DNA from: Candidatus Eiseniibacteriota bacterium
GTDB lineage: Bacteria > Eisenbacteria > RBG-16-71-46 > CAVPCR01
Reading direction: 5' to 3'
Length of the DNA: 64,000 nucleotides
NCBI GenBank assembly: GCA_963823555.1
Contig: CAWGMA010000003.1
Span: 149,970 to 213,969 of the forward strand
Positions 17,808-45,139 of the stretch are shown here, in pieces. A model generated the notes under the pieces. It did no database searches, was not told the origin of the DNA, and worked only from the letters and a program-made list of their open reading frames with translations. Each line of letters begins with the position of its first letter. The first letter of the stretch is position 1. A program made the position numbers and the translations under genes.

Positions 17808-20800
17808 TTACTGCAGCAACACCATCTTGCGGACAGCCGCCCGGTCCGGCGTGACGAGCTTGTAGAGGTAGATCCCGCTCGCCACCGGCGCACCGCGCTC
17901 GTCCCGTCCGTCCCAGGCCACGACGTGGGTGCCGCCGGCGAGCTGGCCGCTGACCAGGCTGCGAACGGCCCGCCCCGCCACATCGAAGATGGTGAGCGCG
18001 ACCGGCGCTTCCGATTCGAGCGTGAAGCGAATCGTCGTCGCCGGGTTGAATGGATTGGGCGCGTTCTGATCGAGGCCGAAGCGGAACTCGGCGCTTGCCT
18101 CGGAGCCGATACCCGTGGGACCCGCGTTCACGGGAACTCTGAGACTCGCGGCTCCACCCCAGGCCCCACCCTGGTCCTTGGCGCGCACCCACAGGGTCAC
18201 GAAGTCCTCGCCGAAGGTTCCCGCTGGAATCTCCGCCATGACGCCGACCGTGATCGTGCCGAAGTCACCGGTCATGGCCGTGCCGGTGCCGGCCGGGGCG
18301 GGGTTGAGGCCGGCCGACCACTCGGCAGCGAGGATGTTGGAGCCCCCCGTGTTCGCGTCGGTCACGGTGGCCGCGAGGGATGTCGCCTCGCTGGCCCGGA
18401 TGGGCAGCGGATCGACCGCGATCGAGCCCGCCACCACCACCGGTCCGGTCAGATCGCCGCCCGGGAGATGGAGCGTGAGATCTCCGTTCGAGTCATCGCG
18501 CCCGCGGAGAGAGGGCGATCCGTTGTCGGTGATGGCGACTCGGATCCGGTAGCGGGTGCCGTTGGGGAAGCCCGCCGGATTCCAGGAGTAGGGCGGCGGG
18601 CCCGGAGCCGCCGCGACCAGGTTCCACGACTCGCCTCCGTTCGAGCTGACGTGGATGGTCCGCGATGCGACCGTGAATCCGGCGGCCGCCGATTCGGTCC
18701 AGGAGATGGCCACCGGGCCGCTCGTGATCACCTCGCCCCCGTCCGGCCCCGTCACGGTGACATCCGGATGATCGTGGCCGATGAGCCAGATCAGGGTCCG
18801 GTCGAGGATGTCCGCTCGCGCCTCGTCATCGGGGACAACGGCATTCAGATGCGCCCACTCGTAGAAGTTGGTGGAGATCTTCGTCGGCTGCCCACCCCAC
18901 ACGGCACTACCGGGATCACCCGCAGGCATTGCGCCTGTGAAACGAATGGCAATGTCATCGGGAGAGGTGTCGTTGTTCCGCCAGCTGGCCAGCGCGGTGC
19001 CGCCGACCGGGTTGGGGTTGATCTCGTCGCCGGCGGCCCCCGAACGGTGCGGCGTGTAAGGAATGCCTGCGGTGTAGGTGCCGCTGATCGGGTCGCCGGC
19101 GATGCCGAGGACCGAGCTCCAGGTCGCCGGGTCGGCCTGCCAGATGGCCTTGAGCTCGGTCTCGAACCAGGCCTTTCGCGCCGGGGAGTAGTCGGGAGAG
19201 CTCGGTTCCGAGAAATCCCAGGCCACATCGTGGGAGAAGATGGCCCAGCGGGCTCCGCCGGCGTTCAGGGCGGTGAGCGTGTCACGCGCGGCATCGGTGA
19301 TCACCGGGTACTGCTCGAGGCCCGGCTGCCAGACGACGGCCTTGAAGGAGCGCAGTCCGGAATCGAGATTGCCCAGGCGCGGCGGGCTGGCGAGAGCTCC
19401 CTCCCAGATCGCGTGGGCCCACCCGCGGGACGAGAGCGCCGTCTCGTAATAGCCCCTCTTGTCGAAGGAGCTGTCGGTGATGACCACGAGAACATCGCGT
19501 CGCGAATCGGTCGTGAAGCGGTAATGGACTCCCCCCGCGTCGTCGCGCACGCCGTTCCCCTGATGATCCACGGATTCGACGTCGAAGTAATAGGTCTGGT
19601 TCGTTGCGAGCCCGGTGATCGTGACCGCGTGCGTGGTGACCAGGGCCGGCTCGAGCTCGGTCTCGGCGCCGAGGAGCGGCGTCGTCCCGTAGTAGACCCT
19701 CGAGCTCGCGGGCGTTGAGGTGAGCCACGTGATGGTGGCTCCATCCTGGCTCTGGTTGCCGGCGTGCACTGCGGTGATCACAGGACCCAGGAGATTGACC
19801 GTGGCGCGGGCCGCGATTGGATTCGGGTCGAGGTAGGTCACGGTGATCTCGTCGCCATTCGACACCTGGATGCGACCGTCCGCCGCCGGAGCGGCGAGGG
19901 AAATCGGGATCGCGCCGGTGAAGATGCCGTCCCCCCCGTCGAGGCTCACCACTTCCGGCGTCGACTCGGTGGTGGAGCTGACGCTCACGGTCAGCGGCAG
20001 CGCTGCATCCGGGTCGGTGACGCGGATGGCCACCGTGTCCTCGGCGCCGTAGGCGGCCTGATTCAGCTCGACCACGGCGAGGCCGCTCGCCAGCCCACCG
20101 GTGACCACCAGCGCGAAAGGCTGCGGGCCGAAGGGAACGTTCGCGGCCTCCACCCTGAGGATCCACGTGCCCGCGGATGGCAGGTTGCGCTGGACGCACT
20201 CCTCGACGTTGATGGCGTCGGCGGTCCCGCCGGTCGACGACTGGCCGGCGGCATAGAAGTTGCCGCGGTAGACCGCTCCACCCGGCTCGGTGGCGATGAG
20301 GTCGAGGTTGTTGACCAGGTTGATCGCCGCGGCCGGCGTCGAGGGGTAGTCGGTCCAGACCAGGGTCGCCTCGATCGGCTGCGTCGCGTCGGTGACCTCG
20401 ACCGCGAATTCGACATACTCGCCGGTGAGAAGGCCGGTCGTGAAGTCCACGAGCGCCGTCCGCCGGGTGTCACCGGCGAAGTAGAGCACGTTGTCGGTGA
20501 GCACGCGGCCCCAGCCGATGCGATTGGAGGGGATCGAGTAGCCGCTGACCGAATTGTCCCCGGAGTTGACCACCATGGCCTTGAGCAAGGCCGCCGACGG
20601 CGTGAAGCCGTTGGCCGGCACCTTGGCGCCGGTCGGGTACCAGCCCTCGGTCAAGTACTGGCGCATCAGCGCGGCGGCGCCCGCCATGGCCGGCGTCGCC
20701 ATGCTGGTGCCGGAGAGCGAGGCATAGGAGGCGTCCCCGCTGAAGAAGGCGCTCGAGACCGCGACCGCCGGTGCGCAGACGGTCGGCTTCAGTCGGCCGT

Positions 20801-22247
20801 CGTCCGCCGGGCCCCCCGAGGTCGAGCTGTAGATGGTGTTGGCCGCCGTGCCGTTGCCGGTTCCGCCGGCCGATACGCAGTTCTTGGCGGTTGCCGGGCT
20901 TCCCACTGTCCCCGTGCCGCCCGAGTTGCCGTCGGCGAAGAAGGGGAGGAAGTCGGGGTGCTCCCACATGAACTGGTCGACCGTCATGGCCTGGAAGTCG
21001 TAGTCGCCGGCAGCGGCTGATCTGCTCCACGAGTTCGACATGATGCGCGCCCCGCCCGCGGCATTCCCGGTGTAGGGGAGGACGAGGAGATCGTTGAGGT
21101 CGATCGGCACGTAGATCGCGACCGGGTCGCTGCCACCGCCATCGCAGAAGTAGAGCTGCGCCGCGGGCGCCATGCCGTCGCGGAGATCGGTGGCGAACGG
21201 TGAGTCGTCCCCGGCGACGGTGCAACCGGTGTGGGTGCCGTGTCCGCTCTCGTCGCCGAAGAGGATGCGCGGATCCTCGTTCGTCTTCACATAGGCCACG
21301 AGCTTGCGATGATCCGGGTACTGGCCGTAGCCGGTGATGGAGATCACGGGATCGCGGAACTGATTGTGCGTGGTGCGGATCCCCGAGTCGGCCGTCGAGA
21401 CCATCTGGCCCTCGCCGCGGATGCCGAGGTCCCAGATGCGGCGGTCCGAGCTGACCCAGGTCTGCACCACCCACTGCGCGTTCGAGTTGACGATGCGGTT
21501 CGGGTGCCAGGGCTCGATCCATGCCACCGCCGTCTCCCGCGCCAGGTCGGGTAGGATGTCGCTTCCGGCCTGGAAGCGGATGAGCTGGTTCCGCCCGCGC
21601 GAGCGCTCGACGACGTTGCCGCCGAGGGTGGCGATGCGCGCGGCGATGATGTCGGCGGGTTCGCCGTCGAACACCTGGAGGACGTAGCTGTCCCCCCGGC
21701 GGCCGGGCGCCATCTCGGGAGCGGCCGCCAGCTTGTAGGCCGGGTGGTAGGCGCCGGTCCACTCGACTCGGGGCATGCGCGCGATGGTCTCGCGCGCGCC
21801 GGCGGGAAGGCGGACCAGGAAGGCGTCGTGCGGGAGATAGGCATGGATGCGGCCGCCGAGGGATTCGAGATCAGCCTTCCATTCGGCCTCGATCGGGCCG
21901 GCGAACTGGACGATGAAGTATCCCGCCGCGTCGGATCCGGGGTCGCCGCGGAGGGCATCCGGAAGAGGGGGCTCGCCCATGCGGGTGTCGAAGCGGATAC
22001 CGCTGGCAAGGGTGATCATGGTCCGGTCGGCTACGGGATCGGGCTGGGTCCGCCCGCGACGGATCACCGAGATCCGGTCCCCGTGGCCGCCGGGCTTGCT
22101 CTCCATCCTCGAGGTGAAGGCGGGGCCTGGCGTGTTCGCCACCCGGTTGGCGCTTTCTCCGGACAGGGCATGAAAGGCGATCGCGAATGCCGCCAGGGCC
22201 ACGCAACCGAGGAAACGCAGAGAGCGATCCAGTGTCGGGCGATGCAT
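17808..22247 (-). CDS. Secreted S8 family serine peptidase (subtilase) of about 1480 aa, with a FlgD-Ig/T9SS-like C-terminal domain
   Basis: Signal peptide MHRPTLDRSLRFLGCVALAAFAIAFHA. Subtilase catalytic motifs are present: the Asp region, GHGTHTGCTVAG and SGTSMATPAMAGAAAL. A long beta-rich region follows. The C-terminus reads ...QNAPNPFNPATTIRFTLESEAPVALTIFDVAGRAVRSLVSGQLAGGTHVVAWDGRDERGAPVASGIYLYKLV. Confidence 0.9.
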   Translation of the reverse strand: MHRPTLDRSLRFLGCVALAAFAIAFHALSGESANRVANTPGPAFTSRMESKPGGHGDRISVIRRGRTQPDPVADRTMITLASGIRFDTRMGEPPLPDALRGDPGSDAAGYFIVQFAGPIEAEWKADLESLGGRIHAYLPHDAFLVRLPAGARETIARMPRVEWTGAYHPAYKLAAAPEMAPGRRGDSYVLQVFDGEPADIIAARIATLGGNVVERSRGRNQLIRFQAGSDILPDLARETAVAWIEPWHPNRIVNSNAQWVVQTWVSSDRRIWDLGIRGEGQMVSTADSGIRTTHNQFRDPVISITGYGQYPDHRKLVAYVKTNEDPRILFGDESGHGTHTGCTVAGDDSPFATDLRDGMAPAAQLYFCDGGGSDPVAIYVPIDLNDLLVLPYTGNAAGGARIMSNSWSRSAAAGDYDFQAMTVDQFMWEHPDFLPFFADGNSGGTGTVGSPATAKNCVSAGGTGNGTAANTIYSSTSGGPADDGRLKPTVCAPAVAVSSAFFSGDASYASLSGTSMATPAMAGAAALMRQYLTEGWYPTGAKVPANGFTPSAALLKAMVVNSGDNSVSGYSIPSNRIGWGRVLTDNVLYFAGDTRRTALVDFTTGLLTGEYVEFAVEVTDATQPIEATLVWTDYPSTPAAAINLVNNLDLIATEPGGAVYRGNFYAAGQSSTGGTADAINVEECVQRNLPSAGTWILRVEAANVPFGPQPFALVVTGGLASGLAVVELNQAAYGAEDTVAIRVTDPDAALPLTVSVSSTTESTPEVVSLDGGDGIFTGAIPISLAAPAADGRIQVSNGDEITVTYLDPNPIAARATVNLLGPVITAVHAGNQSQDGATITWLTSTPASSRVYYGTTPLLGAETELEPALVTTHAVTITGLATNQTYYFDVESVDHQGNGVRDDAGGVHYRFTTDSRRDVLVVITDSSFDKRGYYETALSSRGWAHAIWEGALASPPRLGNLDSGLRSFKAVVWQPGLEQYPVITDAARDTLTALNAGGARWAIFSHDVAWDFSEPSSPDYSPARKAWFETELKAIWQADPATWSSVLGIAGDPISGTYTAGIPYTPHRSGAAGDEINPNPVGGTALASWRNNDTSPDDIAIRFTGAMPAGDPGSAVWGGQPTKISTNFYEWAHLNAVVPDDEARADILDRTLIWLIGHDHPDVTVTGPDGGEVITSGPVAISWTESAAAGFTVASRTIHVSSNGGESWNLVAAAPGPPPYSWNPAGFPNGTRYRIRVAITDNGSPSLRGRDDSNGDLTLHLPGGDLTGPVVVAGSIAVDPLPIRASEATSLAATVTDANTGGSNILAAEWSAGLNPAPAGTGTAMTGDFGTITVGVMAEIPAGTFGEDFVTLWVRAKDQGGAWGGAASLRVPVNAGPTGIGSEASAEFRFGLDQNAPNPFNPATTIRFTLESEAPVALTIFDVAGRAVRSLVSGQLAGGTHVVAWDGRDERGAPVASGIYLYKLVTPDRAAVRKMVLLQ

Positions 22248-22450
22248 GAATACCTCTTCCGCTGGCAACGGGGGTCGGGGGTGCCGGATCCATCCGGCCC
22301 CGGGGGCTTCTGGGGCGTCTGGGCTGCCCCTTCCTGGCGGTAGCAGTGGATCATAGCCGAGCCCCCGCCGGGGAGCCAGTGGCAGGTCGGCAGCCGCCGC
22401 ACCATCCGTTGCGCTATGCTCCAGCGAGATCGGTCCCGGTCGAGAAAGTG

Positions 22451-25003
22451 ATGAAGGCAAGGGGCTTTCGGGGTTCGGGCTTTCTCCTGGCAGTTCTGGC
22501 GGCAGCCATGCTGCCCGCCGCCATGGCGCGCGCGGCCGGTCCGCCCTTGAAGCCGGCGCCGGTTCTCACGATCGAGCGGGCCACACGTCAGGAGATGCCC
22601 ACCCGCACCTTCGACGTGCACCATCTGAAGCTCGAGCTCGCGCTGGATCCGGAGGCCGGGCGGATCTCCGGCGAGGCGACCCTGACCCTGAGCCCGCTCA
22701 GCGGTTCGATCACCGAGGTCCCGCTTCATGCCGCGGACCTGGCCATTGAAGCCGCCTGGATCGAACGGGAAGGGACCATCGACAGCGCGGGCACCGCAGT
22801 CGAACCCGGGCTCCTGCGCGTCGCCCTGCCGCGAAGCGCCGCCCCCGGGGAGACGCTCCGGGTGCGGGTGCGCTACACCGCGCATCCTGCGACCGGTCTC
22901 ACCTTCGTCGCCGCCGATCCCGCCGGCGGCCGCTCGCTCCAGATATGGAGCCAGGGTGAAGCCGAGGAGAATCGCTTCTGGTATCCGGCGTGGGACTACC
23001 CCAATGACCGGGCGACGAGCGAGCTCGTGGTCACGGTGCCGGAAGGCCTCACCGCGGTCGGCAACGGCCTCCTGGTCGCCCGGCGCGAAAACCCAGATCG
23101 CACCGTGACGTTTCACTGGCGCGAGGACCATCCCCACGTCAACTACCTGTTCTCCCTCGCCGTGGGCGATTTCGTCCGGCTGCCGGCGCAGGCCGGCGAG
23201 GTTCCGCTCGAGGTCTATGTCGAGCGCGGGCTCGAACCGCTCGCCGAGCGGAGCTTCGGCCACACCGCCGATATGGTGCAGACGTTCGCCCGGGCTTTCG
23301 CTCATCCCTATCCGTTCGAGAAGTACGCCCAGGTCACGGTGCGCGACTTTGCCTACTGGGGCATGGAGAACGTGAGCGCCACGACGCTGATGGAGCGGAC
23401 CCTGCACGATGAGGCCGCGCACCTCACGTACACCTCGGACGACCTCGTGGCGCATGAGCTGGCGCATTCCTGGTTCGGCAACATGATCACCTGCCGGAGC
23501 TGGAGCCAGCTCTGGCTCAACGAGGGTTTTGCGACCTACGCCGAGGCGATCTACTACGAGGCCCGGTGGGGAGAGGAGGGCCTGGTCGACCGCCTGCTGA
23601 ATGACCGCGAGAACTACCTCGAGGAGTACGAGGAGGACTACCGGCGGGCCATCGTCACCGATGTCTTCGTCGAACCGGTGGACCTCTTGGATGCCCACAC
23701 CTACAGCAAGGCAGCTCTGGTCTTGCACATGCTGCGGAAAGAGCTCGGCGAGGAGGTGTTCTGGACGGCGCTCCACCGCTATGTCGCCGCCTTTGCCTGG
23801 AGGGAAGTCGAGACATCCGATCTGCGTAGGATCTGCGAGGAAGTGTCGGGGCGCGATCTCGGCGTGTTCTTCGACCAGTGGCTCTACCGCAGCGGCCACC
23901 CTGTGCTCGCGGCGAGCTGGTCCTGGGACCGCGAGCTCGGGCAGGTCGAAATCGAGATCGAGCAGACTCAGGGAGTCGACGATTCGCCGTTGTTCTTCGA
24001 CACGGCGCTCGACATCCGCATCGTGACGGCGGTTCCGGACGCCGGCCGGCCGGAGGTCGTGGACCATCGCGTGCGCCTCCGGGGCGCGCGGGAGACGTTC
24101 CATTTTCCGGCGGCGGCGCGTCCCAGCTTCGTCCAGCTCGATCCGGCCGGCTGGCTCCTCGCCGAGATCGACTTCCAGAAGCCGGCCGCCGAGTGGGCGC
24201 TCGAGCTGGCCAGCACCACGGAGGTTCTGGGGCGCGTGGCGGCGGTTCGCGCGCTCGGTGCATTCCCCGGAGACACGACGGCGCTCGCCGCGCTCGCCCG
24301 TGCCCTGCGCGAGGACACCTCGCGGCACGTGCGCGCCCGGGCCGCGGCCAGTCTCGGCGAGCTCGGCACCGAATCGGCGCTCGACACGCTGGCCAGCGGA
24401 CTGGCCGATCCCGATGCGCGTGTCCGCCTGGCCGTGGCCACGGCGCTCGGCGAATTCGCCTCGGCGCGCGCGGCGGACCGCCTGCTCGATCTCATCGACC
24501 GCGATCCGAGTCCGTATGTGGTCGGCGCCGCCGCCGAGGCGCTGGGTGCCACCGGGGATGTACGGGCGCACCAGCGTCTCTTGCATCTCCGGCAGCGGAG
24601 CGCCCACGCCGACGAGATCGCGCGTGGCGCCTACGCCGGCCTTGCCGCCCTCGAGGATGAGGCCGTGCTGCCGGATCTCATGCGCGGCACAGGCGAGGAC
24701 ATACCGGGTGAGGCCCGGCGCGCGGCGATCCTTGGGCTCGGCACCCTGGCATCTGAGTTGCCCGAGCGACGACCGGAGATCCAGGCGCGGCTCGTGGGGC
24801 TTCTCGACGCGCCGTTGCTCGACACCCGGCTCGCCGCGATCGAGGCCATGGGGGAGAGCGGGGATCCGGGTGCCCTGCCGGTGTTGAGCCAGCTTGGACG
24901 GAGCGCGTGCGGGGAGTTAGTGCGAGCGACGGCACGGCATGCTGCCTGGCACGTCGCCCATGCCGAGGATTCAGCCGGCAAGACCGCGGACAAGGAGGAT
25001 TGA
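22451..25003 (+). CDS. M1 family zinc aminopeptidase (aminopeptidase N-like) with C-terminal HEAT repeats and signal peptide
   Basis: Signal peptide [28 protein letters not shown]. The M1 zinc motif [10 protein letters not shown]...WLNEGFATY (HEXXH-E) is present. The C-terminal approximately 250 aa are HEAT/PBS-like repeats (...[13 protein letters not shown]...[16 protein letters not shown]...). Confidence 0.9.
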
Positions 25004-25005
25004 TC

Positions 25006-25143
25006 ATGATCATGACCACGACGCCGACCATCGAGGGCAAGCGCATCGCCGACTACAAGGGAGTGGTGACGGGCGAAGCGATCCTCGGCGCCAACGGCAG
25101 CATGCTCATGGTGAGCGTGAGCGGCACCGCCGTCGTCATCTAG
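25006..25143 (+). CDS. YbjQ/UPF0145-like mini-ORF of 44 aa, internally collapsed
   Basis: [30 protein letters not shown]|[15 protein letters not shown] matches the N-terminal and C-terminal strands of roughly 105-aa YbjQ (DUF74) proteins, but the central approximately 60 aa are absent. Starts 3 nt after the M1 peptidase stop. Confidence 0.4.
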
Positions 25144-25679
25144 CGCACGGTGAAGGTGGCGCTCGAACCACCGAGCGGCACCGTCGTCGACCCGCCGTTG
25201 ACGCCCGTGGCGCTGGCGACGCGGAGGGATGAGGTCCCGGTGGCCGCGTTGCTGGCGACCTCGACCGTGGCGGTGACCACGATCCCGTCGCCGGGCGGGA
25301 TCTCGGATGTGCCATTCAGGTCCACGAGGATCACGCGGGCCAATCCGCCCGCGATCTCGTTCACCTGAGCGTCGAAGTCCGCGGCGCGGGCGCCGGCGCC
25401 GGCCGCGGTCACGCTCAGAAGGGCGGCGTCATAGCCGAGGTCGAATTGCAGCCCGGTGAGCGAGCTCGTGTTCTCGAGCCGGAAGCTCACCGTGACGGCG
25501 GCTCCTGGCGCCCCGGCGGCATCATCGATGCGAAGGACGTTCGTCAGGTCGGGGGTGAAGGGTGGCGGCCCGTTGCCATCGTCGTCATCACCCCCGCCGC
25601 AGCCGGCAAGGAGAATGAAGGAGAGAACCGCCGTGGCAAGAGCGCACCGGCGCAGCGAGGGTATCGATCGGACGCTCAT
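25140..25679 (-). CDS. Lipoprotein with cohesin-like domain
   Basis: Lipobox LLAGC|GGG after the signal peptide. The central approximately 130 aa fit the cohesin beta-sandwich pattern ([32 protein letters not shown]...). Start taken at ATG 25679. It lies 62 nt downstream of the dockerin-bearing S8 peptidase. Confidence 0.5.
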
Positions 25680-25741
25680 CGTGGCTGCCAAGGGTTGTCC
25701 TCCTCCTTGCGGTGTGCTCGCCGGGTGATCGGCCGTGTTGC

Positions 25742-28624
25742 TCATCGCACCACCGTGAGCCGCGCGGTTGCACTCTCACCGCCGGCCGTCACGCGTGCCC
25801 AGTAGACTCCTGCCGGCAGCGGCCGTCCCCTGGACCCGCGGCCGTCCCAGACGATCTCATGCCGGCCTGGCGCGCGCGTATCATCGGCCGGCATGGCCAC
25901 CAGCCGTCCCGACACATCATAGATTCCCACGGTAACGCGCCGATTTTCCCTGCCTGGCACCTCGATGGCGATACGGGCGGGACCGGCAAAGGGATTCTGC
26001 GTGGCCGCCCATATCCGTAGCGACGCCGGTGCGCCGCCGCCCGCCGGATCCGGAATGGGGGCGCCGAAGGAGACGGTCCCGGCGACGTGCTCGCCACCCG
26101 GACCGACGAGGTCGAGGCGCAGCGGGCGCCAGGCCGCCGTCTCGGCTCCCGCGGCCGCGACGAAGGGCAGGTTGATGACGGGGTTCCCGCCGCTCAGCGA
26201 ATGCCCGTCGGCGGCGAGCGCCATGAGGCGTGTGGTCCCCTCGGCATCGCGCGGCGAGCCGAGGGCGAGAACGCCGCTCCGCGCGCCGCGCACCGCGGCG
26301 GCGAGTGGTGTCAGGGTGCCTCCTGGCGCCGGCGCCAGGTCGAGCTCGAGCCCCGACACGGGAGCAGCCGCCTGGATCGTGATCGGGAGGATCCATGTCA
26401 CCGCGCCGACCGGCGGCACGGGTGGGTTCGCGAACGCACCGGCCGCCATGATGGCGCGGATCACCAGGACCACGTCACCGACATCGATGATCTCGTCACG
26501 GTTCATGTCCGTGCGATCACGCTCCTCGGGGGTCGGCTGCTGGACCTCCAGGACATAGTCGAGGGCGAGGAGCGCATCGGTGATTTCGAGGACGCCGTTG
26601 CCATCGATGTCGCCGGCGATGGTGGTGTCGGATGCGGCGGCGTTCGCGGCGGCGAGGACATCGAGCTTCCCGTACCCCCATAGAGCGTTGGGCAAGAGAC
26701 CCGTGAAGGCATCGGAACGAGCGGTGGTGGTCAAGGCGCGCTTCAGATCGACGATGTCCCAGTCGGGATGGAGCTCCAGGAGCAGGGCCACGGCTCCAGT
26801 GACATGCGGCGCGGCCTGGCTCGTGCCTTGCTGGATGGCATAGCGGTCGCCGGCGAGGAGGAACATGTTGGGGAACTGCGGAAACGGCGAGGCAAAGCTC
26901 GATGACGGCGACGTCGGCGGAGCATCGACGGAGAAGCAGGAGGCAATCTCCATCCCCGGTGCGCAGAGCTCCGGCTTGATTCTCCCGTCGCGCGTCGGCC
27001 CGGCGTTGGAGAAGGGTGCGATCGCGCCGAAGGCGGCGTTGGGTAGGCCGAGGGTGCGCAGGTCGAAGTGGTTGCCGTCCTTGTCATCCCATTCGATCTT
27101 GGTCGTATGGGCGCCGACGGTGATGGCGTTGCGCGCCGTGCCCGGCTCCGAAACGAAGCCGGTGGAACTGGCGAAGCTGCCGAAGGCGGTGGCGGCTCCG
27201 GGCAGGGTCGGCTCGAAGGTGCTGATGGAGATGTAGGCATCGAAGGGGCCGGCGCCGTTCTCGAGGCGGATCCGCCAGCTGCCGGGCACGGGCTGGGCGC
27301 CGGGGATATCGATGACCAGGATGTTGGCCTCGAAGTCGCCGTTGGCCGGGTTGGCGCCCGCTCCGACGTTCTGGACCAGGATCAGACCGTCCTCGCTGAA
27401 GGTGCCGCTCGGAGCGTTCGACTCACCGGGAGCGAACGGGCCGACGGCCAGTCCGTTGGGCGTGATGACCGTGATCGAGAATCCGGCGAAGGTCTCGTAC
27501 CAGAGGTTGATGAGCACGAAGTCGTTCTGCACGCCGGACGCCGGTACGTAATCCGGGATCGTGAAGCGGAGATCGTTGACTCCGCTCACGTAGTCCGAGG
27601 CGGCATGCTGCGCCGGCAGGCTGCGCTCGTTGCCGGCCGCCGCGACGATGGCCTTTCCCGGCCTGCCGCTGCCCACCAGGTTGTCGATCGCCACCTCCTG
27701 CAGCGCCGAGCCGTCGTGGGCCCCGAAATGGCCGCCGAAGCTCAGATTGGTCACGTAGGGCTGGCCGAGCTCGGCGGCCTTCTGATCGATGAAGGAGAGG
27801 GCGTTGACGACATCGGCCTCGCTCAGGCCCCCCGAGCCCGCGCGATCGCCGTTGACGATGATGAGATCGGCGCCGGGCGCGACCCCTCTCATGCCCGACA
27901 TGACGCGGCCGCCACCGGCGGCGCTGCCGGCGACATGGGTGCCGTGGCCGACGACATCGCGCGCTGTGGCGCCCTGATCGATCTGGGCGGCGGTGAGGAG
28001 CGTGCCGCCGAAGGGGCCGTTGCCCGGCACGCTCAGGTCGAGCAGGAACTTGATGCGGGTCGTGCCGTCGGGATTCTGGAAGTCGGGATGCTCGGTATCG
28101 ATGCCGGTGTCGATGACACCAACGATCACGCCCTCTCCGGTTGCTCCGTACTCCGACCACACGCCGGGGGCGCCCGTGTCGGGAACGCTCAGGTCGTTCA
28201 TGAGGCGCATCCGGCCGGCGGCCTGGACGCGTTCGACCACCGGCAGTCGGGCGATGTCGTCAACAAGAGCGAGGGGCACCGCGCGCGCCGTGGCCACTTC
28301 GCCGATGACCGTATCGATCTCGAGGCCGAGCGCCGATAACGACGTCACATCACCGCCTGCGACGGCAAGGAGGAGATCGGCGACCGGAACCCCGGCCAGG
28401 AGTCGGGCCCCGAGCGCCGACGCAGCCGGGCTCAGCATGGGCGCGCCCCGGCCCGGGCTCGCGGCGGCTTCATAGAGCGGCTCGGCGGCCAGGGCGAGCA
28501 GGGGCTGGACCTTGCGTCCCTCCTCGGGCGAGAGCGAAGGAGCCGCCACCGCGGACGTTGCCGAGATGAGAAGTGCGGCGACCAGCAACCCGGACCGTCG
28601 GGAGACCCTTATCGCGTTCATCAT
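25742..28624 (-). CDS. Secreted S8 family serine peptidase of 960 aa with a type-I dockerin and a FlgD-Ig/T9SS-like C-terminal domain
   Basis: Signal peptide MMNAIRVSRRSGLLVAALLISATSAVAAP. Subtilase motifs are present: VGVIDTGID, HGTHVAGSAAGGG and GTSQAAPHVTGAVALL. A dockerin is encoded at about nt 26470-26640 (GDIDGNGVLEITDALLALDYVLE...TDMNRDEIIDVGDVVLVIRAIM). The C-terminus reads ...NPFAGPARIAIEVPGRENRRVTVGIYDVSGRLVAMPADDTRAPGRHEIVWDGRGSRGRPLPAGVYWARV. Confidence 0.88.
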   Translation of the reverse strand: MMNAIRVSRRSGLLVAALLISATSAVAAPSLSPEEGRKVQPLLALAAEPLYEAAASPGRGAPMLSPAASALGARLLAGVPVADLLLAVAGGDVTSLSALGLEIDTVIGEVATARAVPLALVDDIARLPVVERVQAAGRMRLMNDLSVPDTGAPGVWSEYGATGEGVIVGVIDTGIDTEHPDFQNPDGTTRIKFLLDLSVPGNGPFGGTLLTAAQIDQGATARDVVGHGTHVAGSAAGGGRVMSGMRGVAPGADLIIVNGDRAGSGGLSEADVVNALSFIDQKAAELGQPYVTNLSFGGHFGAHDGSALQEVAIDNLVGSGRPGKAIVAAAGNERSLPAQHAASDYVSGVNDLRFTIPDYVPASGVQNDFVLINLWYETFAGFSITVITPNGLAVGPFAPGESNAPSGTFSEDGLILVQNVGAGANPANGDFEANILVIDIPGAQPVPGSWRIRLENGAGPFDAYISISTFEPTLPGAATAFGSFASSTGFVSEPGTARNAITVGAHTTKIEWDDKDGNHFDLRTLGLPNAAFGAIAPFSNAGPTRDGRIKPELCAPGMEIASCFSVDAPPTSPSSSFASPFPQFPNMFLLAGDRYAIQQGTSQAAPHVTGAVALLLELHPDWDIVDLKRALTTTARSDAFTGLLPNALWGYGKLDVLAAANAAASDTTIAGDIDGNGVLEITDALLALDYVLEVQQPTPEERDRTDMNRDEIIDVGDVVLVIRAIMAAGAFANPPVPPVGAVTWILPITIQAAAPVSGLELDLAPAPGGTLTPLAAAVRGARSGVLALGSPRDAEGTTRLMALAADGHSLSGGNPVINLPFVAAAGAETAAWRPLRLDLVGPGGEHVAGTVSFGAPIPDPAGGGAPASLRIWAATQNPFAGPARIAIEVPGRENRRVTVGIYDVSGRLVAMPADDTRAPGRHEIVWDGRGSRGRPLPAGVYWARVTAGGESATARLTVVR

Positions 28625-28655
28625 GAAGTGCCCCTTCAGAGCGTGATGGTCGTTG

Positions 28656-29024
28656 TCACTTGATCTGCATCTGGCGAGCAGGCTCGATCTGGATCACCTC
28701 GTCCAGCGCGGCGATCTCGGCCAGCGAGCGCGGCTGGATCCAGCCGGTGAGGACGTCGCCGACAACCGTGTCGACGCGCATCCCCCTCGACTCGAGGAAG
28801 GGGCTGGAAGCCGCTTCATCGACCCGGACGAGCACCGAGAGAAGCGAGTCCCCTTTTCCTTCGCTCAGGAGCTGGGAGGCGGTGCGGCGCAGCTCGGGAT
28901 CGACCTTGGCCGCAGCAGGGCCGGGAAGGTCGAGCGTTTCCTGACCATGGGAACCGCATCCAGCCAGAACAGCGAGGGCCAGGACGCTGAAGAGGGCAGG
29001 GCGGAGAGAGGTTGAGTGGCGCAT
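28656..29024 (-). CDS. Small lipoprotein resembling the subtilisin propeptide (inhibitor I9-like), 122 aa
   Basis: Lipobox LAVLAGC|GS. The segment ...DSLLSVLVRVDEAASSPFLESRGMRVDTVVGDVLTGWIQPRSLAEIAALDEVIQIEPARQM resembles peptidase-S8 propeptide / I9 inhibitor domains. It lies 31 nt upstream of the dockerin-S8 gene. Confidence 0.5.
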   Translation of the reverse strand: MRHSTSLRPALFSVLALAVLAGCGSHGQETLDLPGPAAAKVDPELRRTASQLLSEGKGDSLLSVLVRVDEAASSPFLESRGMRVDTVVGDVLTGWIQPRSLAEIAALDEVIQIEPARQMQIK

Positions 29025-29155
29025 CCTGGCCTCGGGGTGGGGAGCCTCTCGACGGCGCGCGGCACAGCCAATGCAGGCCGGCGCAGGATTCCAGAGCCAA
29101 GTGACATTACCACTGGCGCCTGGGCGTGGGAAGCGGCTCGCGCCGGGCGGGAACG

Positions 29156-29692
29156 CTAGCTGCGAGCGAGCGGGATGAACCCCTTGGGATAGCGCCGGGC
29201 CAGATCGACGTAGGTCTTCTTGAAGTGGAGCCACTCGGCCTTGTAACGCTCGTCGACCGTCTTCTCGAGGATCCTGGCTGGAACGCCGACCGCGATCTGT
29301 CCGGGCGGGATCTCCTGGCGCTGGCGCACGACACAGCCCTCGCCGACGACCGCCCAGGTCCCGAGAACGGTCCAGTCGCTCACGACCGCGCCCATGCCGA
29401 TGACGACATAATCCTCGATGCGCAGGGCGTTGTGGATGATCGAGCCGTGTCCGACGGTGACCCAGTTTCCGATCGTGCACACCTCACCCGGCCGGGCGTG
29501 GATGACGCAGTTGTCCTCGATGCTGGTGAAGTCGCCGATGTGGATCGTGCCGTAGTCGCCGCGGATGCGGGCGCCGGGGCCGATCCAGCAGCCGCGGCCG
29601 ATCACGACATCCCCGAAGACATCGGCCGATGGATGAATGTAGGTCGCTTCGCCGATCGTCGGCGTCTTGCCCTCGAAGCTGGCAACGCTCAT
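29156..29692 (-). CDS. Gamma-class carbonic anhydrase family protein (hexapeptide-repeat, PaaY/YrdA-like)
   Basis: Left-handed beta-helix hexapeptide repeats (...IGRGCWIGPGARIRGDYGTIHIGDFTSIEDNCVIH...) and conserved His residues. The internal ATG at 29692 gives 178 aa. Confidence 0.82.
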   Translation of the reverse strand: MSVASFEGKTPTIGEATYIHPSADVFGDVVIGRGCWIGPGARIRGDYGTIHIGDFTSIEDNCVIHARPGEVCTIGNWVTVGHGSIIHNALRIEDYVVIGMGAVVSDWTVLGTWAVVGEGCVVRQRQEIPPGQIAVGVPARILEKTVDERYKAEWLHFKKTYVDLARRYPKGFIPLARS

Positions 29693-29757
29693 GGCGGTTG
29701 TCCTCCCGGTGGCGAGGATAGCAGGAAGTGCCGCCTGGCCGGTGCTAGGATCTCGCT

Positions 29758-30484
29758 CATGGACCACCGAGCCGGTGAGAGCGATCTCCTTCTGCTCCGC
29801 GACGTTCACCATGTCTATGCCGATGACGGGGTCGAGGTCGTGGCGCTGCGCGGCGTGACGCTCTCGGTGAAGGCCGGCGAGTTCGTGGCCATCGTCGGTC
29901 AGAGCGGCTGCGGCAAGAGCACTCTCCTCCATGTGATGGGGGCCATGGATCGCCCGCGTTCGGGCGAGGTATGGCTTCGCGGCCGGGAGATCGCTCGCCT
30001 CGATGACGAGTCGCGCACCGCCATCCGCCAGCGCGAGGTGGGTTTCGTCTTCCAGTTCTTCAATCTGCTCCCCACGCTCGACCTGAGCGAGAACGTGATG
30101 CTGCCGGCGTTGCTCGCCGGCGCCGGTGTTGCCGCCGCGCGCCAGAGGGCCGAGGATCTGCTCCGCGCCGTCGGGCTCTCCGGGCTCGGCGCTCGCCGGG
30201 CGACCGCGCTCTCCGGCGGCGAGCGCCAGCGTGGCGCGATCGCTCGCGCCCTGGTCAACGAGGCCCCGCTGCTCCTCGCCGATGAGCCGACGGGGAATCT
30301 GGACAGCGGGACCGGAGCCGAGATCATCCGGCTCCTGCGCGCCCTGCCGGCGAGCCGGGGCACGACCGTCGTGCTCGCCACTCATGCTACCGAGCTCGCC
30401 CGCGTCGCCGATCGCGTCGTCACCATGCGTGATGGGCGCATCGAGAGCGACGAGGCGGCGGGCGAGGGCCAGGACAGGCTGTGA
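29758..30484 (+). CDS. ABC transporter ATP-binding protein (MacB/LolD-type)
   Basis: Walker A GQSGCGKST, ABC signature LSGGERQRGAIARAL and Walker B LLLADEPTGNLD. The start is set at the ATG at 29758, not the overlapping N-terminal extension. Confidence 0.9.
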
Positions 30485-33041
30485 TCCCCCGCCTCCTCGT
30501 CTGGACCAGCCTCCGCCACACGGGCCGCGCGCCAGGGCTCTTTCTCCTCGCGGTGCTCGGTATCGCGCTGGGAGTGGCGGTCTTCGTGGCGATCCAGATC
30601 GCGAATCGCACGGTGCTTCGCACCTTCGCCGCCACGGTCGACGCGGTGGCCGGGCGGGCGAACCTGGAGATCGCCGGTGGCGGCAACGGTCTTCCGGACA
30701 GCCTGTACGTGCGCGTGCGGCGGCTCCCCGGCATCACCGCCGCCACGCCTCTCGTCACGGCTCATGCTCTCTTGCCGGACCACCCCGGCGAGGTCCTGGA
30801 GCTCATCGGCGTCGACAGCTTCTCGAACGGACCTTTCCGTACCTATGACGTCGTCGCCGCCGATGGCGCTGCGGATGGATACCTGTCGTGGCTCGCCGAT
30901 GCGCGCGGCGCCCTCGTGCCCGCCTCGCTGGCCAGGACGCTCGGGCTCGAGATCGGGAGTCCGCTCGTCATCCTGGCCCGGAGCGCCCCGGACACGCTCC
31001 GGGTGCGCGGCCTCCTGCGCTTCTCCGGAGAGATCGAGCGCACCGCCGAACGAATCGTCGTCGTCGATCTGGCGACGGCGCAGGAGGTGTCGGGCAAGCT
31101 CGGGCAGCTCGATCGCATCGATCTCATCGCCGCCGATCCGGACTCGACCGGCATCCGCTTGCAGGCGCTCGCCGCAAACGGGTGGCCGGCGGATGCCAGC
31201 GTGCGGCGTCCGGGCGCTCGCACGACGCAGGTCGAGACCATGCTCGCCGCTTTCCGGCTCAACTTGACGGCGCTCAGCCTGATCTCGCTCTTCGTCGGTG
31301 TCTTCCTCGTCTACAACGCTGCGACCACCGAGGTCGTGCGCCGCCGGCGTGAGATCGGCATCCTCCGTGCTCTGGGCACGCCACGGCGGATGGTCCGACG
31401 ACTCGTTCTGCTCGAGACCGGCGTGCTGGGGGCCATCGGCATCGCGGCCGGCCTCGGGTTGGGGGTGCTCCTCGCCCGGTTCGTGCTGAGCTCGATCGCG
31501 CGCACCGTCTCGGCGCTCTACGTCCAGGTGGCGGTGCGCGAGCTCTTCATCGAACCGCGCGTGCTCCTCGCGGCGGCAGTGGCCGGAGCCGGGGCGGTTC
31601 TCTTCGCCGGCTGGGCACCGGCGCGCGAGGCAGCAGGGCTCGAGCCGCAGGTGGTCCTGACCGAGGGCCGGTATCCGGCGCTCGGCTGGCTCCGCCCGCT
31701 GCGCCTGCTCGCGGCGGCGCTCGCCGCAGGCGCCCTCGCCGCGATCCTCTCCATGTCGCGGCTCGCGAGCTGGCACCCGGCGGCGGGGTTCCTGGCGGCG
31801 CTCTGCATCCTCACGGCCGGGGCGCTGGCGGCACCGGCGGCGGCGGTGGGTCTCATCGCCGCCGCCCGAGCGCTGGCCGGGCGGAGCGTGAGCATGCGTC
31901 TGGCCGCCGGGCAGCTCCGGGCCGGCCTCCGGCGGGCGGCGGTCACCATCGCCGCGCTCAGCTCGGCGCTCGCCATGGTGATCGGCGTCACCATCATGAT
32001 CGACAGCTTCCGGCGCACGGTGGACCTCTGGATCGGGCAGACCATCCGCGCCGACCTCTATGTCGCGCCCGCGAGCCAGCGCGCCGCCGGGGGGCGGCCG
32101 AGCTGCCCGGGGAGGTCAGCGCCCGGATCGGGCGGTTGCCCGGTATCCGAGCCCGCGACGAGCTCCGCATCGTCGAGCTCGAAGTGGGCGGGCGCCGGGT
32201 TCACGGGGGTGCCGTCAACTTTGACGTCATCGCGCAAGAATCGGCGTTCCTGTTCCGTCGGGGCCGATCCTCGTCGATTCTCGCCCAGGCCATCCGGGAT
32301 CACGGGGTGATCGTGAGCGAGCCCTTCTCCCGCCATCAGCACCTGGCCGAGGGGGATACGCTTCATCTCGCCACGCCCTCCGGTCCCGCCGCGCTCAGGA
32401 TCGCCGGGGTGTTCTACGACTATTCGAGCGATGCCGGTCTCGTCTTGTTTCATCGGCCGCACTACGCGGCGCTCTACCGGGATCCGGCGATCAACTCGCT
32501 TGCGCTCTATCTCGAGGACCCGGCGGGCGCGGCGGCCTTCAGGCAGGCCATCGCTGCCGGCGTGGGTCGCGAGCACGCGCTCCTCATCCGGTCGAACCGC
32601 GACATCCGGGATGCCGCGCTCGAGCAGTTCGATCAGACCTTTGCGGTGACCATGACCCTCAAGTTCATCACCCTCATCGTGGCCATGGCCGGAGTCTTCT
32701 TCTCGCTGACGGTGAGCGTGGCCGAGCGCCGGGCCGAGATCGGTATCCTGCGCGCGATCGGCGCCAGGGCGGGGCAGGTGCGGCGGATGGTGTTCGGCGA
32801 GGCGCTCCTGATCGGCCTCGCCGCGCTGGTCGTGGGCGTGGCGACCGGCATCGGCCTCGCGCTGCTCCTCGTCTTCGTCATCAACCGCCAGTTCTTCGGG
32901 TGGACCCTCCTCTGGGTCCTGACTCCGCGTGTCCTCATCGAGGCGTTCGTGGTCATCGCCGTGGCATCCGTGCTGGCGGCATGGCTGCCGGCGCGGACCG
33001 CGATCCGTACGGACCCGGCGGCGAGCCTGCGCGCCGAGTAG
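30481..33041 (+). pseudogene. ABC transporter permease with two FtsX domains (YbbP/MacB-like, about 850 aa), interrupted by a single-nucleotide frameshift
   Basis: Frame 1 ORF 30481-32310 carries the first FtsX domain. Frame 0 ORF 32136-33041 carries the second FtsX domain. Reading through with one extra G in the GGGGGG run at 32089-32094 restores ...ASQRAAGGAAELPGEVSARIGRLPGIRA... The GTG start overlaps the ATPase stop. Confidence 0.8.
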
Positions 33042-33184
33042 CCGCGGGGGGCGGAGCGCGCCAGCGGCGATTCGTGGAGCGAGCGGACTCGCCCCGCTCC
33101 CGTCTCTCGTGCTATGCTTCCCGCCCGCCGCGGCACCCCCCTCGTCGATGCCATGGACTCAGCCGTGGCTACCGCTCGAAAGCC

Positions 33185-33853
33185 ATGAGGTACAAGAAGA
33201 TGCACAGAATGATGGTATGCGCGATCCTGGCCCTCGGGATCGCCGGCCAGGCCCTGGCCGCCGACAACCCAAAGGACAAGGCAATGACGCAAATCGACGA
33301 GATGATCGCCAAGGCTGGCGTGGACAAGTCCGACCCGGCCTGGCGCACGACTATCCCGAAGCCCGAGATGGCCACCTTCGATTCGACACACACGTACTAT
33401 GCGAAGATGGTCACCAGCAAGGGGCCGATCCTGATCAAGTTCATGCCGAAGGTGGCGCCCATGCACGTGACGAGCTTCATCTATCTCACCAAGCTCGGCT
33501 TCTACGATGGCCTCACCTTCCATCGCGTGATCACCGGCTTCATGGCGCAGGGTGGTTGTCCGCTCGGTAGTGGCACCGGGGGCCCGGGCTACAAGTACGG
33601 GGGCGAGTTCGATTCCAAGGTCAAGCATGACAAGCCCGGCCTGCTCTCGATGGCCAACGCCGGCCCCGGCACGGACGGCAGCCAGTTCTTCCTGACCTTC
33701 AAGCCGACGCCCTGGCTCGACGGCAAGCACACGCTCTTCGGCGAGGTCGTCGAGGGGATGGATGTGCTCAAGGCCCTGGAGGCCGCCGGCTCCGAGAGCG
33801 GGACGACCAAAGAGAAGCTCGTGATGGAGAAGGTCACGATCGAGGTCAAGTAA
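33185..33853 (+). CDS. Peptidyl-prolyl cis-trans isomerase, cyclophilin type, secreted
   Basis: Signal peptide [25 protein letters not shown]. Cyclophilin core motifs are present (...[15 protein letters not shown]...GGEF...[18 protein letters not shown]...[13 protein letters not shown]). Confidence 0.9.
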
Positions 33854-33881
33854 CCAAAGCGCCTTCGCGTATTCGAGAATC

Positions 33882-35102
33882 ATGACGGCCACGGGCCCGC
33901 GTCACGACAGATCGATGTCGGTCGCGGGCCCGCTTGCTTGGGCACGGCACCGCGCCGGCGCCGGGGGCGTCGCATTGCTTATCTGCGCTGTGACGCAGAT
34001 ATTCCCGGGATGGCTCCCGGCCGATGATTCCTTCCGCCCGCTGGAACCTGGATACGAGCTGCGTTTTCCCGAGGATCACGCCGCCCATCCCGCCTACCGC
34101 ACCGAGTGGTGGTACTACACCGGACATCTTTGGTTCGAGGCGCCTGGCGATGCCGGCGGCAAGCCGGGTCGCAAGCAAGCGCCATCGGATCTGGGATTCC
34201 AGCTCACTTTCTTCCGGAGCGGGATCGCTCGTCCTGAACCGCCGCGACCATCACTCTGGGCGCTCCGCGACATCTACTTTGCGCACCTCGCCATCGGGGA
34301 CTTCGCAGCGCGGCGCTTCCACGTCGCCGAGCGGCTCGAACGGGATGCCCTCGGGCTTGCCGGAGCCGACTCCGTGCGCTATCACGTGTGGGCGGGAGAC
34401 TGGTCGGCGACCCTGGCGCCCGACGGTGCTCATCATCTGGTCGCGGTCGAGGCGGAGGAGTGCGGCGTCGACCTCACGCTCGTCCCGTTGAAGCCTCCGG
34501 CCCTGCACGGAGAGGCGGGATGGAGCCGGAAGGGGGATGAACCGGGCCAGGCTTCCACCTACTACTCGCTGACCCGCATGGCGGCGAGCGGCACGGTCCA
34601 TCTCGGAGACCGCACGCTCAGCGTGCGCGGCGAGGCCTGGATGGACCACGAGTTCACGACCGGTGAGCTCGCGTCCGACCTCGTGGGCTGGGACTGGTTC
34701 GGATTGCAGCTCGATGACGGCACGGAGCTCATGCTCTATCTCCTGCGTCGCTCCGACGGCACACCGTCCCCGGCCTCGAGCGGGAGCCTCGTCGATGAGG
34801 CCGGCCGCGTCACCCATCTCGACCGCGAAGCGTTCACGGTGACGAGCGAGTCGAGCTGGCGGAGCCCCCGGAGCGGGGCGGTCTACCCCGCGGGATGGCG
34901 GGTCCGCGTTCCCGGCGCGGCGCTCGAGCTCACGCTCACACCTCGGCTTCCCGACCAGGAACTGGTGACTCGGGAATCGACCGGCGTCACCTACTGGGAA
35001 GGGGCCGTCGGGATCAGCGGCAGTCGCGGAGGGGCCCCGATCACGGGCCGCGGGTTCGTCGAGCTCACCGGTTACGCCGAGGCCTTTCGCGCCCGGATGT
35101 GA
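33882..35102 (+). CDS. AttH/CrtC-like lipocalin-fold protein (carotenoid 1,2-hydratase family)
   Basis: The EWWYYTGHL motif and overall length are typical of AttH / hydroxyneurosporene synthase-like proteins. Confidence 0.65.
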   Translation: MTATGPRHDRSMSVAGPLAWARHRAGAGGVALLICAVTQIFPGWLPADDSFRPLEPGYELRFPEDHAAHPAYRTEWWYYTGHLWFEAPGDAGGKPGRKQAPSDLGFQLTFFRSGIARPEPPRPSLWALRDIYFAHLAIGDFAARRFHVAERLERDALGLAGADSVRYHVWAGDWSATLAPDGAHHLVAVEAEECGVDLTLVPLKPPALHGEAGWSRKGDEPGQASTYYSLTRMAASGTVHLGDRTLSVRGEAWMDHEFTTGELASDLVGWDWFGLQLDDGTELMLYLLRRSDGTPSPASSGSLVDEAGRVTHLDREAFTVTSESSWRSPRSGAVYPAGWRVRVPGAALELTLTPRLPDQELVTRESTGVTYWEGAVGISGSRGGAPITGRGFVELTGYAEAFRARM

Positions 35103-45047: not shown

Positions 45048-45139
45048 CTATTACATAATCACTTAGCAAATCTCATATAGTCATGGTAGAATGAAGGGCT
45101 GTGCTGGTGCCGCATCCGTTCACTCCTGGGGGATCGACC

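Follow-up and report, generated by a model that had tools for sequence, protein, structure and literature searches.

How is a secreted subtilase kept at the cell that makes it? The question is raised by a locus in a 64,000-nucleotide stretch of a Candidatus Eiseniibacteriota genome (hereafter the window; assembly GCA_963823555.1, contig CAWGMA010000003.1, positions 149,970 to 213,969), which has a G+C content of 68%. Three genes on the minus strand code for a 122-amino acid (aa) lipoprotein resembling a subtilase prodomain (28656–29024), a 960-aa multidomain S8 peptidase with an internal dockerin (25742–28624, including the stop codon), and a 179-aa lipoprotein with a cohesin domain (25140–25679); together with an upstream hexapeptide-repeat gene they form four co-directional open reading frames (ORFs). 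These reading frames, their coordinates and their common orientation had been given in a preliminary description of the region, and our ORF calls agree with it. The observation at this locus is real and far above chance. Our reading of it is that the three genes are an operon-like unit for a cell-associated protease, in which calcium-dependent docking of the dockerin on the lipid-anchored cohesin keeps the S8 peptidase at the outer membrane; we put the probability of this at a little over one half (roughly 55%).

A dockerin enzyme and a cohesin lipoprotein side by side

The plug of the proposed pair is an internal dockerin in the S8 peptidase (aa 670–727; 26444–26617, minus strand), which matches Pfam Dockerin_1 (PF00404) at 28.6 bits over aa 670–725 (cut-off 22.9). 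It has two calcium-binding loop-helix repeats, beginning DIDGNGVLEITD... and DMNRDEIIDVGD..., with loops at D672–D683 and D706–D717 that can be read directly from the translation. This is the layout of a dockerin, in which each of two tandem repeats of ~22 residues is a 12-residue, EF-hand-like loop (D-x-[DN]-x-[DN]-...-D) and a helix after it. All 18 members of the S8 family have the Pfam match, and G671, D672, D683, D710 and D717 are invariant in an 18-sequence alignment. A profile of the family dockerin segment matches type I dockerins in the PDB (4fl4_A, E 1.8e-11), and also the double dockerin of a serine protease of Clostridium thermocellum (8x39, E 1.4e-8).

The candidate socket is the product of the next gene, which starts 62 nt beyond the S8 stop codon. 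Its signal peptide has the lipobox LAGC (Cys27); next come the acidic run GGGDDDD, a short linker rich in proline, and a cohesin domain (aa ~47–179; 25143–25541, minus strand) that matches Pfam Cohesin (PF00963) at 49.9 bits (cut-off 24.1; E 5e-13). A profile built from orthologues matches 13 cohesin sequences in the PDB at E ≤ 0.03, the best being 4uyp_A (1.7e-5). The orthologues known to us are P0001–P0003 and those in loci L084, L085, L091 and L092. The type I dockerin, with both loops exactly as they had been written out in the preliminary description, the cohesin assignment and the 62-nt gap thus all stand, and the Pfam comparison suggested there puts Dockerin_1, Cohesin and Peptidase_S8 past their cut-offs. 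A longer start for the cohesin gene, at an ATG (25743–25745) that overlaps the S8 stop codon (25742–25744) as ATGA and would lengthen the protein by 22 residues ahead of the signal peptide, was rejected because the orthologues begin at the position of 25679; this favoured start is 18 nt past a GGAGGAGGA stretch. Scans of 24900–29900 for sigma-70 promoters and intrinsic terminators found none, and there is no Rfam match in the window.

The enzyme itself matches Peptidase_S8 in two stretches at 155.8 bits (cut-off 21.8). Its catalytic domain (aa ~144–660; 26645–28195, minus strand, by Pfam) has a long internal insertion, and the triad residues D172 (DTG), H227 (HGTH) and S602 (GTSQA), in the order D-H-S, are invariant in the 18-sequence alignment along with the oxyanion residue N332. 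The nearest NCBIfam model is CspBA; the score of 103.8 bits is far under the cut-off of 1250, and the protein is therefore not a Csp orthologue. There is also a partial match to denti_PrtP. The catalytic domain is preceded by a Sec signal peptide (aa 1–28, ending SAVAAPS; 28541–28624, minus strand, read from the sequence and not with a predictor) and by a prodomain (aa ~30–143; 28196–28537, minus strand, placed by alignment and by homology to the small-lipoprotein family), which in the alignment stops right before the conserved NDxSVPxTGAP that opens the mature domain. A protein of identical sequence (P0004) is present in public data, encoded on an 852-kb contig. This prodomain is one of three parts of the S8 protein that were overlooked in the preliminary description, the others being a C-terminal FlgD_ig domain (see below) and a module between this tail and the dockerin.

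That module (aa ~741–858; 26051–26404, minus strand) follows directly after the dockerin and is kept in all of the ~18 full-length relatives. An AlphaFold2 (AF2) model of the ~135 residues between dockerin and tail, made with a 15-sequence alignment, is a confident beta-sandwich of the cohesin type (predicted local distance difference test score, pLDDT, 90.1; predicted template-modelling score, pTM, 0.83), and structure comparison finds the cohesins of Clostridium perfringens NagJ and NanJ to be the closest structures. Homology to cohesins appears at the level of profiles and structure only. Alignment of the module profile with that of the lipoprotein cohesins by hhalign gives a probability of 59.8% (E 8.8e-5), and the NagJ cohesin ranks first in a search of the PDB (E 0.14); BLASTP of the module against the lipoprotein cohesin is not significant (E 1.2), and Pfam Cohesin has no match in the module of the window S8 at E ≤ 1 and a match in only one of 18 relatives (E 8e-4). 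The S8 protein thus bears a plug followed by a divergent socket, and the one plug of the locus has two possible sockets. The whole window has no dockerin but this one, and its only cohesins are that of the lipoprotein and the cohesin-like module inside the S8 protein.

The second socket raises an alternative, in which the dockerin binds the cohesin-fold module of another S8 molecule, or of its own, to give dimers or head-to-tail chains, and the lipoprotein cohesin is only the membrane base of a chain or a competing regulator. The two modules are adjacent and both are kept in all 18 family members, the predicted fold is confidently that of a cohesin, and the NagJ and NanJ cohesins that it most resembles join enzyme to enzyme (PMC12997984). 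However, the internal module is so divergent in sequence that it may have lost or changed its binding, the one C. perfringens enzyme bearing both a cohesin and a dockerin showed no binding in assays (PMC12997984), and a cohesin gene that is always linked to the S8 gene would be superfluous for pure self-assembly. We think self-assembly unlikely. More speculative still is an elaboration in which the S8 protein, as plug and socket at once, would form chains from the lipid-anchored cohesin, i.e. a protease polymer or layer that assembles itself from a root in the membrane, with the detached prodomain as its off-switch; if S8 molecules do chain in this manner, it would be a scaffoldin-free route to cohesin–dockerin assembly on a Gram-negative surface.

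Conservation of the linkage in related loci

The architecture of the S8 protein, with dockerin, cohesin-fold module and C-terminal domain in this order, is rare, with ~18 full-length relatives among 5.8 billion proteins searched; the nearest named ones are from KSB1, Calditrichaeota and Latescibacteria. A scan of metagenomes with the dockerin alignment added two further family loci among 30. We examined ten loci (the window, L001/L002, L084, L085, L091, L092, L086, L087, L088/L089 and L090) with S8 identities of 32–67% to the window protein. The preliminary description had offered synteny in relatives as a comparison on which its proposal could fall, and the pairing of dockerin S8 with cohesin is present in all ten loci, across clades, with the cohesin-bearing gene never more than two genes from the S8 gene.

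The loci are of several types. In a close clade, made up of the window, L001/L002, L084, L085, L091 and L092 (48–67% identity, from four loci with a full-length S8 match), a gene for a cohesin lipoprotein of ~170–187 aa is directly 3′ of the S8 gene, with a gap of 12–62 nt in the four loci checked, and a gene for a prodomain-like protein of ~120–130 aa is 5′ of it wherever upstream sequence exists. In P0003, which is a short fragment, the end of the FlgD_ig gene overlaps the cohesin gene by 4 nt. In a distant clade (L086, L087 and L088/L089; 32–33% identity) the order is cohesin protein, ~230-aa lipoprotein, ~200-aa lipoprotein and S8 (cassettes at L086 4727–7981, L087 5898–7952 and L088 4548–7979). 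The ~200-aa lipoprotein is prodomain-like in its C-terminal part, and the cohesin protein, here not a lipoprotein, has a Sec signal, one or two cohesins, Ig-like domains and a common C-terminal domain. One of the distant-clade assemblies, GCA_024275485, is a Krumholzibacteriota/Delphibacteria reference (bioRxiv 10.1101/2023.07.10.548433). Together with the named S8 relatives, this makes an uncultured diderm of the Fibrobacteres-Chlorobi-Bacteroidetes type the probable source of the window. In L090 the cohesin is at the C-terminus of a Big_6 protein, encoded two genes 3′ of the S8 gene.

Two components of the distant-clade cassettes have no counterpart in the window. One is the additional lipoprotein, of ~225–240 aa, which has faint TPR matches and N-termini such as GCGGGGGD and GCSSGDDD. 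The other is the C-terminal domain of the cohesin proteins, which is ~90 aa long and includes the sequence LKNPGR.

The linkage of cohesin and S8 genes outlasts changes in gene order, in cohesin number and in type of anchor, while the flanking genes differ. This bears on the possibility that there is no specific interaction at all, and that the dockerin is a calcium-dependent stabiliser or binds a cohesin encoded elsewhere, the neighbouring cohesin binds a different ligand, and inherited synteny accounts for the linkage. We know of no partner or role for most non-cellulosomal cohesins and dockerins, which fits with this idea, and our search for other cohesins and dockerins in the source genome covered the 64-kb window. 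The close-clade genomes are also broadly syntenic, with genes for an aconitase and for a PAS kinase and its regulator nearby in several of them. However, the pairing is kept in 10 of 10 loci, including those of 32–33% identity in which order, cohesin number and anchor are different and the flanks unrelated, and inheritance alone is hard-pressed to explain linkage through such divergence. We regard the absence of a specific interaction as very unlikely.

A probable detached prodomain and the face of the membrane

The gene 5′ of the S8 gene (28656–29024) was described in the preliminary account as coding for a lipoprotein similar to an S8 propeptide or to the I9 inhibitor. The first part of this holds. 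The 122-aa protein matches aa 96–141 of the S8 peptidase by BLASTP (E 4e-5), and between the small-protein family and the N-terminal alignment of S8, hhalign finds 90 matched columns with a probability of 98.4% (E 4.7e-15); the end of the small protein aligns to M142 of S8, just ahead of NDxSVPxTGAP. The second part does not, as neither the 122-aa protein nor its 27 relatives match Inhibitor_I9 (PF05922) at E ≤ 10. We therefore dropped the I9 label and retained that of a subtilase prodomain paralogue. Its parts are a signal peptide with lipobox LAGC and Cys23 (28956–29024, minus strand) and the prodomain-like region (aa ~33–122; 28659–28928, minus strand). An exhaustive HMMER search puts 29 proteins in the family, most of them with a lipoprotein-type signal. 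Ten of 28 members match CspB_prodomain (PF18425), and two of these, with 26.2 and 25.0 bits, reach the cut-off of 25 bits; the window protein itself does not match. Comparison of the family profile with the PDB gave chance-level matches only (e.g. ribosomal S11, E 0.18). From these sequence relationships the small protein is best described as a free-standing, putatively lipid-anchored paralogue of the S8 peptidase's own prodomain. The prodomain of CspB has been shown experimentally to act in trans, as a foldase and as a blocker of the active site (PMC3567191).

Similar small ORFs are found directly 5′ of S8 genes that have no dockerin. We note three examples, on contigs from KSB1, from an Oscillatoriales cyanobacterium and from Ca. 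Manganitrophus (L004 7418–7816, L007 4243–4656 and L014 7600–8073, respectively), which match the hidden Markov model (HMM) of the small protein with E values of 2e-8 to 9e-4; the ORF in L004 has a clear lipobox. Their distribution suggests a widespread gene pair of S8 peptidase and detached prodomain that would be independent of cohesin and dockerin. Such a pairing of S8 genes with a prodomain-like gene, most with a lipoprotein signal, is apparently undescribed.

In both lipoproteins of the window the signal peptide closes with a lipobox of the form [LVI][ASTVI][GAS]C, in each case LAGC, and the cysteine is conserved among orthologues (as seen by eye and with a regular expression, not a dedicated predictor). 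They differ in what follows the cysteine. Five of six cohesin lipoproteins have an acidic run, as in CGGGDDDD or C-GG-DDDDD, that starts at +4 to +6, and the small prodomain lipoproteins have none. In Bacteroidota the lipoprotein export signal (LES) comprises at least two acidic residues, placed at about +3 to +5 past the lipidated cysteine, in positions that are critical (PMC5080379), and takes forms such as C-S-D-D-D-D or C-x-K-(D/E)2 (PMC5080379, PMC6222051). We favour a tether on the outer face because a run resembling the LES is a conserved feature of the cohesin lipoprotein and is absent from the small one, a contrast that lends weak support to a surface-exposed cohesin and a periplasmic small protein.

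A course of events consistent with docking at the outer membrane can be proposed. The pre-pro-S8 protein would cross the inner membrane by Sec and then be exported, possibly by a route like that of the type IX secretion system (T9SS), for which the C-terminal domain would be the signal. The dockerin would then plug into the downstream lipoprotein's one cohesin, which we infer to be its partner of the two on offer, and the lipid anchor would tether the protease to the outer membrane, probably on its outer face. The most likely role of the detached prodomain would be to engage the catalytic domain in trans while tethered to the membrane, as inhibitor and/or foldase, and in this way to limit S8 activity during passage through the periplasm.

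Lipoproteins of diderm bacteria face the periplasm by default, and cargo of the T9SS type folds in the periplasm. These two circumstances favour a different arrangement, in which the two lipoproteins point into the periplasm, the cohesin tethers the folded pro-enzyme and the prodomain blocks the active site in trans, such that a dangerous protease would be parked, silent, before export or instead of it. The homology of the small protein to the S8 prodomain also fits this arrangement, and the acidic run of the cohesin lipoprotein is off the experimentally defined LES position. However, the run is present only in the cohesin lipoprotein, which suggests different destinations for the two, and the cohesin partners of the distant clade are Sec-secreted proteins with multiple Ig domains and an extracellular look. 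A periplasmic holding complex seems to us rather improbable.

Several points weigh against docking at the outer face of the cell, as we propose it. The acidic run begins at +5 in the window protein, against +3/+4 for the LES, a shift that amounts to one to three positions among the cohesin lipoproteins, and the LES is unproven beyond Bacteroidota, to which the host does not belong, so that the cohesin lipoprotein would by default face the periplasm. Lipid anchoring is not family-wide, as the cohesin protein of the distant clade is not a lipoprotein, and part of the conservation within the close clade may be inherited gene order, given the broad synteny of these genomes. The dockerin could have its real partner in the cohesin-fold module of the S8 protein itself. 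The AF2 model of the small lipoprotein, made with a four-sequence alignment, has a pLDDT of 41.3, too low to support a prodomain-like fold.

The tail of the S8 protein adds to these difficulties. It is a FlgD_ig domain (aa ~877–960; 25745–25996, minus strand; Pfam match of 35.1 bits over aa 881–948, cut-off 27), of the kind that serves as T9SS sorting domain in the Fibrobacteres-Chlorobi-Bacteroidetes (FCB) group, and is thus a look-alike of such domains. It scores under the cut-offs of both type A models (TIGR04183, 17.8 against 23; PF18962 Por_Secre_tail, 12.9 against 27); PF18962 is matched at E ≤ 1 by six of the 18 S8 relatives (best 3.4e-5). No T9SS machinery genes were seen among the scanned proteins of the window. 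Export by a T9SS with covalent attachment to lipopolysaccharide through the C-terminal domain would moreover seem to make a second anchor redundant.

Related systems and the surrounding genes

Among producers of cellulosomes, S8 proteases with dockerins are established. The double-dockerin S8 peptidase of Clostridium (Acetivibrio) thermocellum binds the cohesin of cell-bound ScaD and is believed to sit anchored at the cell surface (PMC12484212; PDB 8x39 and 8x3a), and in that organism OlpA, OlpC and ScaD are single-cohesin anchoring proteins of the cell surface. Both cases have a subtilisin-family protease with a dockerin that belongs to one Pfam family, and for both a single-cohesin, cell-bound protein is the proposed partner, with the proposed task of holding the protease at the surface and not in a scaffold of enzymes. 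The differences are that the host here is apparently diderm, with a lipobox and lipid anchor instead of SLH domains; that there is one internal dockerin followed by a cohesin-fold module and FlgD_ig, rather than a tandem pair; and that the partner gene is adjacent and syntenic, with no cellulosome context visible.

A cellulosome-like complex inferred from metagenome-assembled genomes only has been described for ‘Ca. Stygibacter’ of the Cloacimonadota (PMC8542988), an uncultured bacterium of the FCB group, as the host here probably is, and likewise with a dockerin-bearing peptidase (S8/S53). There the cohesin protein is attached through a T9SS-type C-terminal domain, whereas here the T9SS-like domain is on the enzyme, and a 3,755-aa multi-cohesin scaffoldin with carbohydrate-binding modules and several enzymes with C-terminal dockerins take the place of our one cohesin (the 179-aa lipoprotein) and one dockerin enzyme. 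The claim in the preliminary description that dockerin proteases in such a context are rare and poorly characterised is thus partly true, S8 dockerins on cell-bound cohesins having already been published (PMC12484212, PMC8542988).

Embedded cohesins are known from enzymes of C. perfringens, one of which has both modules, and dockerin-bearing peptidases occur in mucinolysomes (PMC12997984). The toxin/glycosidase complexes of this species that rely on cohesin and dockerin (NagJ, NanJ and NagH; PDB 2w1n, 2vo8 and 2o4e) are made up of glycoside hydrolases of a Gram-positive bacterium, with no lipoprotein partner and no protease.

For the protease and its prodomain the closest comparison is CspB, a germination protease of Clostridium that retains its prodomain and whose subtilase domain is likewise interrupted by an insertion. 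Among NCBIfam models CspBA comes nearest to the S8 peptidase, and relatives of the small lipoprotein match CspB_prodomain. Unlike the CspB prodomain, which is in the same polypeptide as the protease, the extra copy here is a separate lipid-anchored product, and there is no spore context. The PrcB-PrcA-PrtP dentilisin complex of Treponema denticola is similar in being an operon-encoded S8 complex with accessory lipoproteins at a diderm surface. It differs in that its accessory proteins are unrelated, it has no cohesin or dockerin, and PrtP is itself a lipoprotein.

A cellulosome is built on a scaffoldin whose several cohesins bring together carbohydrate-active enzymes with dockerins. We do not regard the locus as encoding one, with one dockerin on a protease, single-cohesin proteins in place of a multi-cohesin scaffoldin, and no glycoside hydrolase among the ~25 window proteins scanned. 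From its gene content it looks more like a minimal, non-cellulosomal form of the plug-and-socket system of cellulosomes, and the principle would be unsurprising to a cellulosome specialist. Four aspects appear to be new, i.e. the lipoprotein anchor for a cohesin, the tight 1:1 operon, the internal dockerin–cohesin tandem 5′ of a T9SS-like tail, and the detached prodomain lipoprotein. Full-text literature searches returned no natural example that combines cohesin, dockerin and lipoprotein, and an earlier mention is possible.

If our interpretation is correct, tethering by cohesin and dockerin extends to the lipoprotein anchors of diderms and to foraging for protein rather than polysaccharide. 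The minimal linked set of a dockerin enzyme, a lipid-anchored cohesin and an embedded cohesin-fold module, found in divergent uncultured lineages of the FCB type, means that partner specificity is directly testable with three small recombinant domains. The parts could also serve in engineering as compact display and inhibition modules.

The hexapeptide-repeat gene (29156–29701, minus strand; Pfam Hexapep, gamma-CA-like), upstream of and co-directional with the module, is present in L001 and absent from L084 and L085, and is probably context only. Divergent from it are genes for an ABC ATPase (29741–30484, plus strand) and a double MacB_PCD/FtsX permease (30481–33041, plus strand). All three had been named as neighbours in the preliminary description, and Pfam supports each of them. 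The ABC/MacB pair adjoins the module in the close clade only, and was rejected as a core part by its absence from the distant-clade loci L086–L088.

The reading frame of the permease gene is broken at 32086–32095. By tblastn, the 859-aa orthologue in L001 matches in frame 1 as far as 32085 and then in frame 3, beginning at 32094, and the break is at a run of six G residues (32090–32095); it is probably a homopolymer sequencing error, and otherwise the gene is a pseudogene. Two genes 3′ of the permease (33161–35102, plus strand) code for a prolyl isomerase of the cyclophilin type, whose N-terminus is signal-like, and for an AttH-like CrtC/Lipocalin_9 protein. The set of ABC ATPase, FtsX permease and AttH-like protein may be akin to the attEFGH-type gene sets of Agrobacterium, which it recalls.

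Secreted peptidases are abundant in the window. A second S8 peptidase of ~1480–1550 aa (17808–22460, minus strand) has an fn3-like region and a tail that passes TIGR04183 at 31.5 bits, and an M28 peptidase (45101–47650, plus strand) ends in a FlgD_ig tail; the dockerin is absent from both of these tailed enzymes. An M1 aminopeptidase is fused to HEAT repeats (22346–25003, plus strand). About 20 kb from the module there is a 912-aa Ser/Thr kinase fused to PD40/WD40 beta-propeller repeats (47760–50498, plus strand), and a 968-aa protein of the same kinase–propeller architecture is encoded, along with an extracytoplasmic function (ECF) sigma factor, within a few kb of the distant-clade S8 loci (L088 13265–16171 and L089 7148–10054). 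The recurrence of a kinase–propeller protein near S8 loci may be coincidence or may reflect a regulatory link.

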